IMG/VR virus record: IMGVR_UViG_3300035208_002098
Location: 64,001 to 128,000 of that record
Strand: one strand, 5' to 3'
DNA: 64,000 bases
Origin: a virus
Taxonomy: Duplodnaviria; Caudoviricetes
Both the position numbers and the translations under genes were made by a program. Positions 26,692 through 53,547 of the stretch are shown piece by piece. How positions within the stretch are numbered: position 1 is the stretch's first letter; each line of letters starts with the position of its first letter. Under the pieces are notes generated by a model. That model saw only the letters and a list, made by a program, of their open reading frames with translations, did not search any database and had not been told where the DNA came from.

Positions 26692-27058
26692 TGTTTATAG
26701 TATTTAATTTTTCTTTTAATTTTAAGAATCTTTGAGCACAATCAATTTTTTTATTCTTTAATCTATATGCTCGTCTTATTTTTAGTCTTGTAAATGGCAT
26801 AAATAAACCATTGATAGTATCTATATGATTACCATCAATCATAACATCAACACCGTACCAAAATGTAATACTAAACGAATCTTCACACTTAAATTTAAAG
26901 CTAACTCCACTAATGTCATTAGATGTAAATTCAGTCCAATAATCATCATAATCATAACAAATTTTGGCTGTCCATGTTAGTTTATTTGTTTCTAATAAAT
27001 CATAAAACAATAACTTATATTCTCGAAGTATCTTCTTTTTTAATATTATAGCATTCAC
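26678..27058 (-). CDS. hypothetical protein
   Basis: 126-aa ORF after promoter at 27077. Confidence 0.55.
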   Translation of the reverse strand: MNAIILKKKILREYKLLFYDLLETNKLTWTAKICYDYDDYWTEFTSNDISGVSFKFKCEDSFSITFWYGVDVMIDGNHIDTINGLFMPFTRLKIRRAYRLKNKKIDCAQRFLKLKEKLNTINNECN

Positions 27059-27120
27059 ATTATCAATTTTAGATTACAAAGATATGTAAATTTTTTAATA
27101 TATGCAAGTAAATAAATAAA

Positions 27121-27149
27121 AAAAGCCCACCAGCGATAGTGGGCTTTTT
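27121..27149 (-). terminator. intrinsic terminator closing the suppressor-tRNA/Pth2 unit
   Basis: AAAAGCCCAC/GTGGGCTTTT stem with U tract. Confidence 0.8.
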
Positions 27150-27156
27150 ATTAATA

Positions 27157-27627
27157 TTAAGCTTTTGGCTTAATGTCCTTAAGAATCTCACCAATTTCAA
27201 CCTTAACTTTCGTTTCAGTTTCTTTTGTATAATTCACTTGAACGTAACTTATAACTTCAGACATCTTACTCTTCATCAATTTAAAGTTTGGTATAGATAT
27301 TTTAGTTCTTTCATATCCCGGAAACATATATGATTTCCATTCATGTACAGCTACTTTAGCAGCTGAAGTATACATACCCTTATCAACTAAATGTTTTACC
27401 ATTTGACTTAATTTAGTTAAATCATATATACTCACATTACATTTTTCACCATTAAATGTTAATTTAATTGCATGTGGTACACCACCAATTTTAACTGTTA
27501 ATACTTTATAAAAATAGTCAGTGTCTTTATTAATAAATAGATGTTGACTTGTTTTTTCGAAATATTTCATTATTTCTTGTCCAATTACTTGTGACTTGTT
27601 TTCTGTTGTTTTTACTATTGTTTCCAT
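27157..27627 (-). CDS. hypothetical protein downstream of the amber minigene
   Basis: probable start METIVKTT at 27627. Confidence 0.6.
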   Translation of the reverse strand: METIVKTTENKSQVIGQEIMKYFEKTSQHLFINKDTDYFYKVLTVKIGGVPHAIKLTFNGEKCNVSIYDLTKLSQMVKHLVDKGMYTSAAKVAVHEWKSYMFPGYERTKISIPNFKLMKSKMSEVISYVQVNYTKETETKVKVEIGEILKDIKPKA

Positions 27628-31256: not shown

Positions 31257-31673
31257 TTATTTGAGAACATTTTTTACAACACCTGTAATTTGAAACCTTT
31301 CAATTTCTACCCAATTAGTTATATCATTACTCATTACTGGTTTACCACCATCATTTACATTAACTGCGACTGTTATGTGTGGTATTTTATTGTTTGAATG
31401 ATAACCTTCAACTCTAACAGCTAAAGCTTTATTACTTACCCCTCTGTGAGTTACGGTTAATGTAACATTTTTAAATTCATCATCATTGATATTTAAATCT
31501 GCCAAACTTTTACCGAATTGTATTGTCATGTGATGAGCAAATGGTTTCCAACCTTCTGGAACACCAATTTTACTTAATAATATATTATGACTTTCTTCAT
31601 CTAAAACAACAGCACAATATAAGATATTGTTATCATACGATTCCCTTAACTTCTGTTTTATTAGATTTTTCAT
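31257..31673 (-). CDS. 2H phosphoesterase (tRNA-ligase CPDase-like or Acb1-like)
   Basis: two HxT motifs (HHMTI, PHITV); KLRE N-terminus. Confidence 0.72.
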   Translation of the reverse strand: MKNLIKQKLRESYDNNILYCAVVLDEESHNILLSKIGVPEGWKPFAHHMTIQFGKSLADLNINDDEFKNVTLTVTHRGVSNKALAVRVEGYHSNNKIPHITVAVNVNDGGKPVMSNDITNWVEIERFQITGVVKNVLK

Positions 31674-32004: not shown

Positions 32005-32076
32005 AGTCGATAATCAGAATCGAACTGACATCCTCAGTTTGGTAAACTGACGCACTAACCGTTGTGCTATATCGAC
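32005..32076 (-). tRNA. tRNA-Gly(ACC)
   Basis: TCAGT-TTACCAA-ACTGA arm, U73. Confidence 0.82.
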
Positions 32077-32264: not shown

Positions 32265-32281
32265 AATTAAAAATTTTATTG

Positions 32282-32366
32282 AGCCTTCTGTCAGATTCGA
32301 ACTGACGTGTCATTTGCATGAACCGGGTTACAAATCCGGTATAATCGACCACTATATGAAGAAGGC
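32282..32366 (-). tRNA. tRNA-Thr(TGT) with long variable arm
   Basis: GCCTTCT acceptor, loop TTTGTAA, extra arm TCATGCAAATGA. Confidence 0.72.
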
Positions 32367-32511: not shown

Positions 32512-32671
32512 AATTATTTTACATCTATAAATTCAATAGATGTTATTTCAGAATTGTTTTGAATAGATTCAAAACTCTCATGTAATGTTTTATTTTTACA
32601 CGATTCTAATATTTCACTTAACCAATGAAATGCTGATTTGTCTACTATTATTTTCATATTATGTTTTTTAG

Positions 32672-32743
32672 TGCAGTAATTCGGACTTGAACCGAAAACC
32701 CTCTCATTGGAAGTGAGACGCTCTTCATTGGAGCTATTACTGC
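32672..32743 (-). tRNA. tRNA-Gly(TCC)
   Basis: TCTCA-CTTCCAA-TGAGA. Confidence 0.8.
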
Positions 32744-32799: not shown

Positions 32800-33063
32800 A
32801 AATAGATGACCGTAGCCAAGGTTCTGTTTTAATCTAACATTTATCTATATATCATATGATATATCCGGTTTTTCATTCCGGTGCCACTACCTGTCTATCA
32901 TCGCAATCTGAGGACCCTTGCTAAGACTAATTTGTGTTGCATCCCATGTTGCAGTGGTATAACGTATAAATTAATATACTTCCACTTCTCAGAGAGATGC
33001 CTTGAACTTCCTCTTCACCACATTTAGTATTATGTGATAAAGCGTTAGAATGCCTGTCTATTT
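32800..33063 (-). ncRNA. rnpB: compact RNase P RNA
   Basis: GAGGAAGTTCAAGGC and AGATAAATG...AACAGAACCTTGGCTA signatures with complementary P4; P1, P2, P3, P5, P6 and P18 pairings are traceable. Confidence 0.82.
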
Positions 33064-33064
33064 A

Positions 33065-33552
33065 TTATTTATTATTTTTTAATTGTTCTTTAATTTTATT
33101 ATCCCATAAATTAGTATCACGTAATTTAGTTAATCGTTTACAAAATTCTGATTCAGTTAATACTGTTTCACTTTGTTTATTTTTACCTATTGAATGTGTG
33201 AATACAGCATCATTAGTTGATAACAAATCTTTCTTAAAATTTTCATTAGTAAATAAAGCTTCGTATGCTCTATTTAATAATTCTTGGTATTCTTTAGATT
33301 TTCTCTGGAATGCTTCACCTTTCCACCATAATGTTTGTCCTGTTTTCCAAGCTTTATTACGACCACTACCTCGTTTCTTAGCACCAAACCCAACCAATTT
33401 ACAAACCTCAGCTTGAATAACTCATTCTCGAATTTAAAGGATTGTAATAACCCTTCCATTGATGCACATTCAACACCATCAAATATAAATTGTCTAGCCG
33501 TAAAATTACTTAGTCTACCAGCAACACCTTTATTATTTCCACCTATATCCAT
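33065..33552 (-). pseudogene. NADAR-family protein (T4 gp30.3-like), frameshifted near 33420
   Basis: LSNF...DGVECASMEGLLQSFK then, in another frame, QAEVCKLVGFGAK...LWWKG...HSIG...TVLTESEF. Confidence 0.72.
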
Positions 33553-33945: not shown

Positions 33946-33954
33946 AAATTTTTG

Positions 33955-34039
33955 TGTATCCGGTGGGGCTCGAACCCACGTTGAACATACTGTTCCTACA
34001 TTAAAAGTGTAGAGCCTAAACCAACTCGGCCACAGATAC
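33955..34039 (-). tRNA. tRNA-Lys(TTT) with long variable arm
   Basis: CTACA-CTTTTAA-TGTAG; extra arm GAACAGTATGTTC. Confidence 0.78.
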
Positions 34040-34617: not shown

Positions 34618-34705
34618 AAAAAGAAAGATGAATTTAAAGGAGGGATTAAGTTAGAAAAAATCCATCTCTCAAAGGATAACATTATCAGCACAATAATGTC
34701 AAGTG

Positions 34706-34791
34706 TATCGTATGTGGGATTCGAACCCACGAATCGATTACTCGAAGCCAGCTTGAAAAGCTGGTGACCTAGGCCGCTAGTCTAATACGAC
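34706..34791 (-). tRNA. tRNA-Glu(TTC) with long variable arm
   Basis: CCAGC-TTTTCAA-GCTGG; extra arm TCGAGTAATCGA. Confidence 0.78.
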
Positions 34792-36547: not shown

Positions 36548-36562
36548 ATGTTTATTTTTTTG

Positions 36563-36647
36563 CAGACCCCGTAAGACTCGAACTTACAAACCAATTAAAG
36601 GCATTAGATTCAAAATCTAACGTGTTTACCAATTCCACCAGAGGTCT
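36563..36647 (-). tRNA. tRNA-Gln(TTG) with Leu-like D arm and long variable arm
   Basis: TTAGA-TTTTGAA-TCTAA, G73. Confidence 0.75.
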
Positions 36648-44815: not shown

Positions 44816-44841
44816 ACATTTGTTTTTAAAATTAATAAAAG

Positions 44842-44925
44842 TGATGGTAATGGGATTCGAACCAACATACGTCATGACCTTCCGATTAAATGTCGGGTGC
44901 TCTAACCAGACTGAGCTATACCATC
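44842..44925 (-). tRNA. atypical tRNA (TTT anticodon, A33, long variable region)
   Basis: canonical D/T arms; CCGA-CATTTAA-TCGG. Confidence 0.55.
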
Positions 44926-45062: not shown

Positions 45063-45189
45063 TGGTGATAATAGGATTTGAACCTATGCCATTATAAAGT
45101 TAATAGAAATCTCAATTAACCATTCAATTTCATCTTTATAACCTAACCTAACTATCGTTAGTGCTCTCACCGGACTGAGCTATACCATC
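45063..45189 (-). ncRNA. tRNA-like RNA with tetraloop in place of the anticodon loop and a giant variable arm
   Basis: GCTC/GAGC D arm, CTAAC-GATA-GTTAG, about 55-nt extra arm, T arm. Confidence 0.6.
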
Positions 45190-53335: not shown

Positions 53336-53367
53336 ATATTACCAATATTTCAATGAACTAAATCCAG

Positions 53368-53452
53368 TACGACCTGTAGGATTCGAACCTACGTTATACT
53401 ATTCGCCTCTACTGTGTAAAAGTAGTGCTCTTACCAACTGAGCTAAGGTCGC
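53368..53452 (-). tRNA. tRNA-Val(TAC) with long variable region
   Basis: CTACT-TTTACAC-AGTAG. Confidence 0.78.
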
Positions 53453-53459
53453 ATTTTTG

Positions 53460-53547
53460 AGTACCCGGTCAGATTTGAACTGACGATGAAGCTTTCGCTT
53501 TGGTGGTTTTGCAGACCACCCCCTTCGACCACTCGGAGCACAGATAC
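53460..53547 (-). tRNA. tRNA-Cys(GCA) with long variable arm
   Basis: GTGGT-CTGCAAA-ACCAC, U73, arm AAGCGAAAGCTT. Confidence 0.8.

Follow-up and report, generated by a model that had tools for sequence, protein, structure and literature searches.

New tRNAs are trimmed by RNase P RNA, a ribozyme considered to belong to cells and organelles. Its active site and its grip on the acceptor end are built by the bulged U of P4, the J5/15 adenines (which read N(-1)), CR-IV, CR-V and the GGU of L15 (which reads the tRNA 3′ end), and a specificity domain (S-domain, P7–P14) reads the tRNA elbow. Reduced organellar RNase P RNAs such as yeast mitochondrial RPM1 are AT-rich and keep P1, P4 and the CR-I/CR-V core, with much of the periphery of the catalytic domain (C-domain) lost and with a dependence on dedicated proteins. 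In archaeal type T RNAs (Thermoproteaceae; RF02357), the catalytic domain is kept and most of the S-domain is gone, P2 is 3 bp long, P15 is shortened, P5 and P15 are joined by a 2-nt linker, and the proteins are archaeal (PMC3579882). The E. coli C-domain alone (the engineered Eco CP RPR) is catalytic whether or not the C5 protein is present, with P6-type pairing mattering for efficiency and P18 being dispensable (PMC5839562).

The RNA described here lies in a 64,000-nt stretch of phage DNA (the window, meaning the whole stretch analysed), and has the C-domain architecture of class A RNA (E. coli M1 RNA, rnpB; RF00010), with the same order of elements from P1 to CR-V, the P15–P17/P6 module that is a class A hallmark, and a P2 of 7 bp, as in bacterial class A. 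It departs from class A in that P7–P14 (~140 model positions) are reduced to a ~45-nt stub, two P4 pairs are swapped (phage GAGGAAGUUC versus class A GAGGAAAGUCC), an extra hairpin follows P18, the gene is phage-encoded inside a tRNA array, and the phage RNAs score under the Rfam threshold, with the window copy undetected. Retention of the catalytic domain and loss of most of the S-domain are shared with type T (PMC3579882), from which the window RNA is distinguished by its 7-bp P2, a 3-nt P5/P15 linker (CAA), the bacterial P15–P17/P6 module and the lack of a match to RF02357; the phage RNA and type T are separate families and a case of parallel reduction. As in Eco CP RPR (PMC5839562), a class A C-domain stands without an S-domain, and P6 pairing is kept in the phage family by covariation; those are laboratory constructs, whereas the phage RNAs occur in nature and retain both P18 and a conserved stub (RAG ... 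CGUU-NNN-A). The window RNA is AT-rich and strongly reduced, like the RPM1-type organellar RNAs, but retains a complete bacterial C-domain. Full-text literature, with most subscription journals outside the coverage, yielded no account of an RNase P RNA encoded by a virus, and an S-domain-less, bacterial-type, phage-encoded RNase P RNA would be new against published knowledge. The catalytic-domain-only phage family would provide a natural experiment on the purpose of the specificity domain, in parallel with type T and the laboratory C-domain constructs.

Identification of the RNA gene

The original prediction, made from the letters of the window, had proposed that the phage encodes, within a tRNA operon, an RNase P RNA of ~264 nt that has lost nearly all of its S-domain, and homology, covarying structure and context agree with it. 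The 264-nt gene runs from 33063 to 32800 on the minus strand, at the coordinates first proposed, for which no strand had been given. All family searches used one covariance model (R1), seeded with two viral sequences only (L265 and L209), with a nested structure derived by hand and the window sequence excluded. R1 matched the window RNA over model positions 1–260 at 60.2 bits (E 2.7e-19 in a 976-kb search; E 1.8e-20 within the 64-kb window alone), producing the sole match in the window and the only one in the whole 248-kb phage record. Since an independent covariance model picks exactly this stretch alone in 64 kb, the match is beyond chance. GC content is 36.7% in the RNA and 28.3% in the window, and the minimum free energy (MFE) z-score of the RNA is -2.3, which is modest taken alone.

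Three core-like motifs follow one another in the 5′ to 3′ direction, namely GAGGAAGUUCAAGGC (CR-I), AGAUAAAUG (CR-IV), and ACAGAAC followed by CCUUGGCU (CR-V and the P4 3′ strand). All proposed helices were found fully paired when checked by script, and the catalytic-domain elements present comprise P1–P5, P15–P18, the P4 and P6 pseudoknots, CR-I, CR-IV and CR-V, the bulged U, the J5/15 adenines and the GGU of L15. At the level of sequence and comparative structure, the locus is confirmed as encoding a bacterial-type RNase P RNA with a full catalytic domain, in which P7–P14 are replaced by ~45 nt.

Rfam, by itself, does not report the gene. With curated gathering thresholds, the window region gave no RNase P match, and none appeared in a 700-nt region at E ≤ 10 with permissive filters, RF02357 included; a search of the entire 248-kb virus record with RF00010 found nothing. 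The RNaseP_bact_a covariance search proposed as a check on the original prediction thus left the window RNA without a match even at E ≤ 10. A missing covariance-model hit was, read literally, one half of what the prediction had named as speaking against it (the other being missing cleavage activity), and independent evidence was therefore required. Relatives of the window RNA scored 33–63 bits against RNaseP_bact_a, under its gathering threshold of 100 bits, because ~140 RF00010 model positions are missing from them, and the absence of a match is a property of the model and not of the RNA. Archaeal type T RNAs were overlooked by earlier Rfam models from the same cause, a missing S-domain (PMC3579882). 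Blastn in distant mode against GenBank phages returned nothing similar to the window RNA, and nhmmer with sequence-only profiles of S-domain-deleted bacterial RNAs gave its best window match at CR-IV/CR-V with an E of 0.33, and no match for the 5′ half of the C-domain. Since the sequence-only profile is weak, the case for RNase P rests on structure and on a transitive chain from the R1 family to Rfam. Rfam-based annotation systematically overlooks such phage genes.

Secondary structure

The elements of the RNA, with the two neighbouring genes, are given in Table 1.

Table 1. Elements of the window RNA and its flanking genes, in window coordinates
Feature	Coordinates	Strand	Evidence
Whole RNA gene, compact bacterial-type RNase P RNA	32800..33063	-	R1 match 33060..32803, plus P1 extension of 3 bp to 33063/32800
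P1 5′ strand, 7 bp + 3 bp (partner 32800-32810)	33052..33063	-	10/10 pairs; helix 1 covaries at every pair in the family
P2 5′ strand (partner 32833-32839)	33043..33049	-	7/7 pairs; 100% paired in the family, 5/6 pairs covary
P3 hairpin, 10 bp	33014..33041	-	10/10 pairs; recovered by the MFE fold; covaries in the family
CR-I and P4 5′ strand (AGU, bulged U at 33005, CAAGG)	32999..33013	-	GAGGAAGUUC common to the family; bulged U in 37/37
P5 5′ strand, 4 bp (partner 32940-32943)	32996..32999	-	4/4 pairs; 4/4 covary
P6 5′ strand, 6 bp, pseudoknot with P17 loop (32907-32912)	32988..32993	-	6/6 pairs
S-domain stub: P7-like 4-bp helix (GUGG/CCAC), AAG, 5-bp hairpin, CGUUAUA	32954..32985	-	Family plan
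J5/15 GCAAC, two conserved adenines (E. coli A248 region)	32936..32940	-	Kept in the family consensus; aligns to RF00010 GCAA in L216
P15 (CAC/GUG), P16 (GUCU/AGAC), P17 (GCAA/UUGC); 3, 4 and 4 bp	32885..32936	-	All pairs formed; helices 10-12 covary
L15 AGGUA	32888-32892	-	GGU conserved in the family
P18 (CCGG/CCGG, 4 bp, 9-nt loop) and second 7-bp hairpin	32847..32881	-	Two-hairpin layout kept; helices 13-14 covary
CR-IV AGAUAAAUG (J18/2)	32838..32846	-	(Near-)invariant in the family; CR-IV AGAURAAUG at its Rfam position in L216
CR-V (ACAGAAC, 32827-32821) and P4 3′ strand (CCUUG-GCU)	32814..32827	-	8/8 P4 pairs in the window
tRNA-Gly(UCC)	32671..32743	-	56 nt past the RNA 3′ end
gp30.3-like gene (T4; PF08010), upstream of the RNA	33065..33552	-	PF08010, E 2e-34 and 2.5e-12

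Two of the helices named at the outset, P2 (UCUAACG/UGUUAGA, with a final G·U pair) and P6 (UCUGAG/CUCAGA), form in full. The 5-bp P5 (GCAUC/GAUGC) stands as CAUC/GAUG with 4 bp, the fifth G–C pair reusing a G that belongs to P4. For P4, full pairing holds but the proposed register AG(U)UCAAGG does not, covariation favouring AGU-(U)-CAAGG/CCUUG-GCU, in which the bulge is shifted by one base. The ~45 nt assigned to the place of P7–P14 agree with the map, in which the P5 strands are 52 nt apart, with 6 nt of this interval taken by the P6 strand. The stub conforms to the plan of the family (helix, RAG, variable hairpin, CGUU-NNN-A, helix), and its conserved part (RAG ... CGUU-NNN-A) is similar to what immediately precedes, on the 5′ side, the P7 3′ strand of genuine class A RNAs. 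Many relatives carry GNRA loops on P18 and on the next hairpin, which the window RNA does not.

A family of compact RNAs in viral contigs

Exact 14–15-mer scans of viral contigs with the CR-I and CR-V of the window yielded ~200 loci, all by chance, with none having both motifs and a complementary P4. Viral contigs were also scanned with a gapped pattern over the universal 3′ core (CR-IV, short gap, CR-V), producing two classes, one of full-length bacterial RNase P RNAs, and a compact one with ~150–190 nt from CR-I to CR-IV. RNAs of the compact class have the unusual CR-I of the window, the conserved stub motif, GCAAC, GGGU...GGCA, and two hairpins ahead of CR-IV. A second scan, anchored on CR-I and CR-IV, added 32 further loci confirmed by R1 (E 1e-8 to 1e-57). 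After removal of duplicates, ~40 distinct RNAs of 217–323 nt remained, many of them on contigs of 150–530 kb, complete genomes with terminal repeats among them. The window RNA agrees with the family at 46 of the 47 columns with at least 90% conservation. Over the core, it shares 69% identity with the closest relative collected (L347), and is thus a divergent member, not a copy. That ~40 divergent copies have the same derived CR-I and stub argues that purifying selection has acted on them in phages for a long time.

Among non-viral sequences, 185,579 species genomes were scanned and one family member emerged (L406:5562-5797, minus strand, equivalent to G001:C90:77562-77797; 74.9 bits), on a 546 kb contig binned with a Bacteriovoracaceae metagenome-assembled genome (MAG). 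This MAG shows no canonical RNase P RNA, and the 8 kb locus has no tRNA by ARAGORN. A cellular origin by way of this contig was considered and rejected, since all 40 sampled relatives of the MAG have the canonical RNase P RNA and none the compact type; the contig is probably a mis-binned phage or prophage.

Two variant loci were also seen. At L273:8087-8178 (plus strand), a compact RNase P RNA is reduced to its 3′ half (P18 to P1), with an ORF directly before it; truncation of the gene, or its interruption by an insertion, may explain this. The RNAs at L213:1487-1835 (plus strand) and L265:7128-7372 (minus strand) are near-identical but for an insertion of ~104 nt in the stub hairpin of the former, which indicates that this hairpin tolerates, or attracts, insertions.

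Relation to known RNase P RNAs

Members of the compact family were assessed for identity with Rfam in permissive mode. RNaseP_bact_a matched L216 over the full model (61.8 bits, E 1e-16 to 1e-18), L316 (62.5 bits, E 9e-17) and L235 (E 1e-6), and RNaseP_arch matched L228 (E 8e-8) and L355, which is of the same subgroup as the window RNA (E 2e-3); no competing Rfam family was reported for the compact RNAs in this mode. The Rfam alignment of L216 places P1, P2, P3, CR-I/P4, P5, J5/15, P15–P17, L15, P18, CR-IV and CR-V on the class A model, with ~33 nt standing for ~140 model positions of the S-domain, and with the CR-IV and CR-V (ACAGAA) joining regions at the same Rfam model positions. In the same tRNA array of that phage, the compact RNase P RNA is preceded, ~4 kb upstream, by a GOLLD RNA (L216:1003-1462, plus strand, 191 bits).

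Conversely, R1 recovers one bona fide RNase P RNA of archaeal type (L426, E 3e-4). Three archaeal RNase P RNAs (L409:521-789, L426:1229-1479 and L512:1299-1553; RF00373, 112–137 bits), two of which come from DPANN-like or uncultured archaeal MAGs, share the GAGGAAGUUC variant of CR-I with the phage family, and the variant is therefore compatible with a working enzyme.

Covariation

Because a MAFFT-only alignment of the family misaligned helices, a model-guided alignment was used, in a 37-sequence version and a 12-sequence version, both of which were scored. With 37 sequences, 95.8% of cells are paired, compared with 60.7% in shuffles and 32–47% in slid controls, and in 57 of 61 pairs both partners vary. 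The nested helices were fitted by R1, and their pairing counts are for this reason biased upward, whereas P4 was left out of R1 and is an unbiased test. P4 is 99.3% paired in the family, with 6 of 8 pairs covarying, 25 sequence versions, and a bulged U invariant in all 37 sequences. Its register of 3 bp, bulged U and 5 bp was fixed by two members (L260 and L216), and corresponds to the E. coli geometry after a swap of two pairs. P6 is not significant in the window alone (shuffle p 0.26); across members, the same two segments are complementary in 8 different sequences, and support for P6 comes from this family covariation only.

Genomic context and phage tRNAs

The window contains genes typical of a large phage (an NAD-salvage pair, an exonuclease, a DNA polymerase, a clamp-loader-like ATPase and HNH endonucleases), and the record, which is ~70% complete, is classed as viral by IMG/VR; the genome that hosts the RNA gene is that of a jumbo phage. 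The window has 32 tRNA genes, all sharing the minus strand with the RNA gene, and 13 same-strand tRNAs lie within 3 kb of the latter. The nearest one downstream, tRNA-Gly(UCC), is likely a co-transcribed, putative substrate of the RNA, and no terminator-like site was found on either side of the RNA, including the gap to this tRNA. Upstream, the TAA stop of the gp30.3-like gene (33065-33067) ends 1 nt before P1. This gene is split into two overlapping frames, with profile positions 3–50 in 33274-33552 and 46–138 in 33065-33397, which could reflect a frameshift, a sequencing error or a programmed shift.

Over 37 family loci, ARAGORN placed 161 tRNA genes on the same strand as the RNA and 0 on the opposite strand, at distances of up to 3 kb. 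At least one tRNA lies within this distance at 22 of the loci and none at the other 15, and about a quarter of family loci have a same-strand tRNA ≤20 nt from the RNA. The tRNA genes of the phage have U(-1) in 24 of 31 cases (P 5e-7, against a base frequency of 33%) and G(+1) in 22 of 31, which, as read from the genes, is the signature of bacterial RNase P substrates. An encoded CCA is absent from 31 of the 32 tRNA genes, though the GGU of L15 is kept. The D-loop GG is present in 31 of the 32 tRNAs and the TTCRA T-loop in all 32. With elbows this canonical, the suggestion that loss of the S-domain confers tolerance of odd tRNA-like substrates, which accompanied the original prediction, lacks support.

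For a protein partner, RnpA (PF00825) was searched for and was absent from this phage record, at its ~70% completeness, and from 15 other phage records with the RNA, four of which are 98–100% complete; no gene recurs beside the RNA as a possible cofactor in more than 4 of the 37 loci. With neither RnpA nor a recurrent neighbour protein encoded, the simplest model is that the RNA subunit borrows host RnpA.

Proposed function

The reading that is probably correct is a working RNase P RNA, predicted to use host RnpA to mature the phage tRNAs. The RNA would be transcribed within the phage tRNA operon and freed by processing of the flanking transcript, and would then assemble with the host RnpA protein, giving a holoenzyme that removes the 5′ leaders of the many pre-tRNAs of the phage. 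The benefit would be a supply of RNase P activity owned by the phage during infection. The homology, the covarying structure, the family and the tRNA co-orientation are observed, and from them the RNA is predicted to be catalytic, to have host RnpA as its partner and to benefit the phage. Such an RNA would add to the translation-related functions of huge phages (tRNAs, synthetases, tmRNA), and raises the testable question of the need of a jumbo phage for its own tRNA 5′-processing and of its dependence on a host protein. A stronger form, in which the phage RNase P is independent of protein or of host RnpA, acts co-transcriptionally on its own tRNA array, and sustains maturation in infected cells whose own RNase P has been silenced, degraded or targeted, is considered doubtful; were it true, no viral RNase P, and no natural RNase P RNA of bacterial type able to function without a specificity domain, would have come before it.

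The RNA could instead be a self-sufficient or cis-acting ribozyme that does without the host protein (by itself, or helped by a phage protein that has escaped recognition) and acts chiefly on the tRNAs of the transcript that contains it, which is unlikely. Tethering would stand in for the substrate affinity of the S-domain, the window tRNA is 56 nt downstream with no terminator between, same-strand tRNAs lie within 20 nt in about a quarter of the loci, and the C-domain alone is active without protein (PMC5839562). Against cis action, 15 of the 37 loci have no tRNA within 3 kb, and a dedicated phage protein is opposed by the finding that no neighbour gene occurs in more than 4 of 37 loci. Protein-free activity of the C-domain, in addition, requires non-physiological salt.

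Quite unlikely is a decoy or regulator, in which the C-domain, where RnpA and the acceptor end of the pre-tRNA bind, is kept to soak up host RnpA or to compete with host RNase P, throttling or redirecting tRNA maturation. Such a role would fit a phage without RnpA, in which any protein engaged must be that of the host, and an RNA whose loss of the S-domain reduces catalytic efficiency in vitro (PMC5839562). However, the strictest conservation is at the active site (the bulged U in 37/37, CR-I, CR-IV, CR-V and J5/15) and not only at protein-binding surfaces, and a decoy has no need for a P4/P6 geometry kept through 25 sequence versions; these conserved catalytic-core nucleotides and pseudoknot geometry argue against a decoy and a relic alike. 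The U(-1)/G(+1) signature further implies that the phage tRNAs need RNase P.

An RNase P-derived ribozyme for other substrates (phage mRNAs, operon leaders or tRNA-like structures) is highly improbable. Recognition without an S-domain would be independent of the tRNA elbow, bacterial RNase P has non-tRNA substrates, and some family loci are away from tRNAs, but the same-strand association with tRNAs, at 161 to 0, is exclusive and argues against it, as do the conservation of L15 GGU and J5/15 (readers of the tRNA 3′ end and of N(-1), respectively) and the canonical elbows and leaders of the phage tRNAs. A decaying relic of a captured host rnpB, or a chance resemblance, is barely credible: this copy has no Rfam match, is AT-rich, and lacks on P18 and the next hairpin the GNRA loops of its relatives, yet it matches an independent model at E 3e-19, agrees at 46 of 47 conserved columns, shares in family-wide covariation, and has ~40 divergent relatives with the same derived CR-I and stub.

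Other features of the tRNA array

Seven tRNAs of the window (all minus strand; 32281-32366, 33954-34039, 34705-34791, 36562-36647, 44841-44925, 53367-53452 and 53459-53547) are 85–89 nt long and belong to Thr, Lys, Glu, Gln, Val and Cys types, which normally measure ~73–76 nt; their D- and T-loops are canonical, and most of them adjoin an isoacceptor of normal length. Rfam called a further tRNA of 127 nt at 45063-45189 (minus strand, 39.6 bits) that ARAGORN did not list, and which may carry an intron or insertion. The 32-nt core of an IscB CRISPR repeat, sought as a lone CRISPR repeat inside the RNA, has no copy in the window (1–64000) at ≤8 mismatches; the reference locus is at genome positions 27027-27519, with diverged copies (5–8 mismatches) at 32053, 52263, 52519 and 53499, all before the window. 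Between tRNA genes, at 31257-31673 (minus strand), a 138-aa ORF has HxT-like motifs and a sub-threshold match (E 2.6e-4) to PF08302, the cyclic phosphodiesterase domain of tRNA ligase, and could encode a 2H-type RNA repair enzyme.
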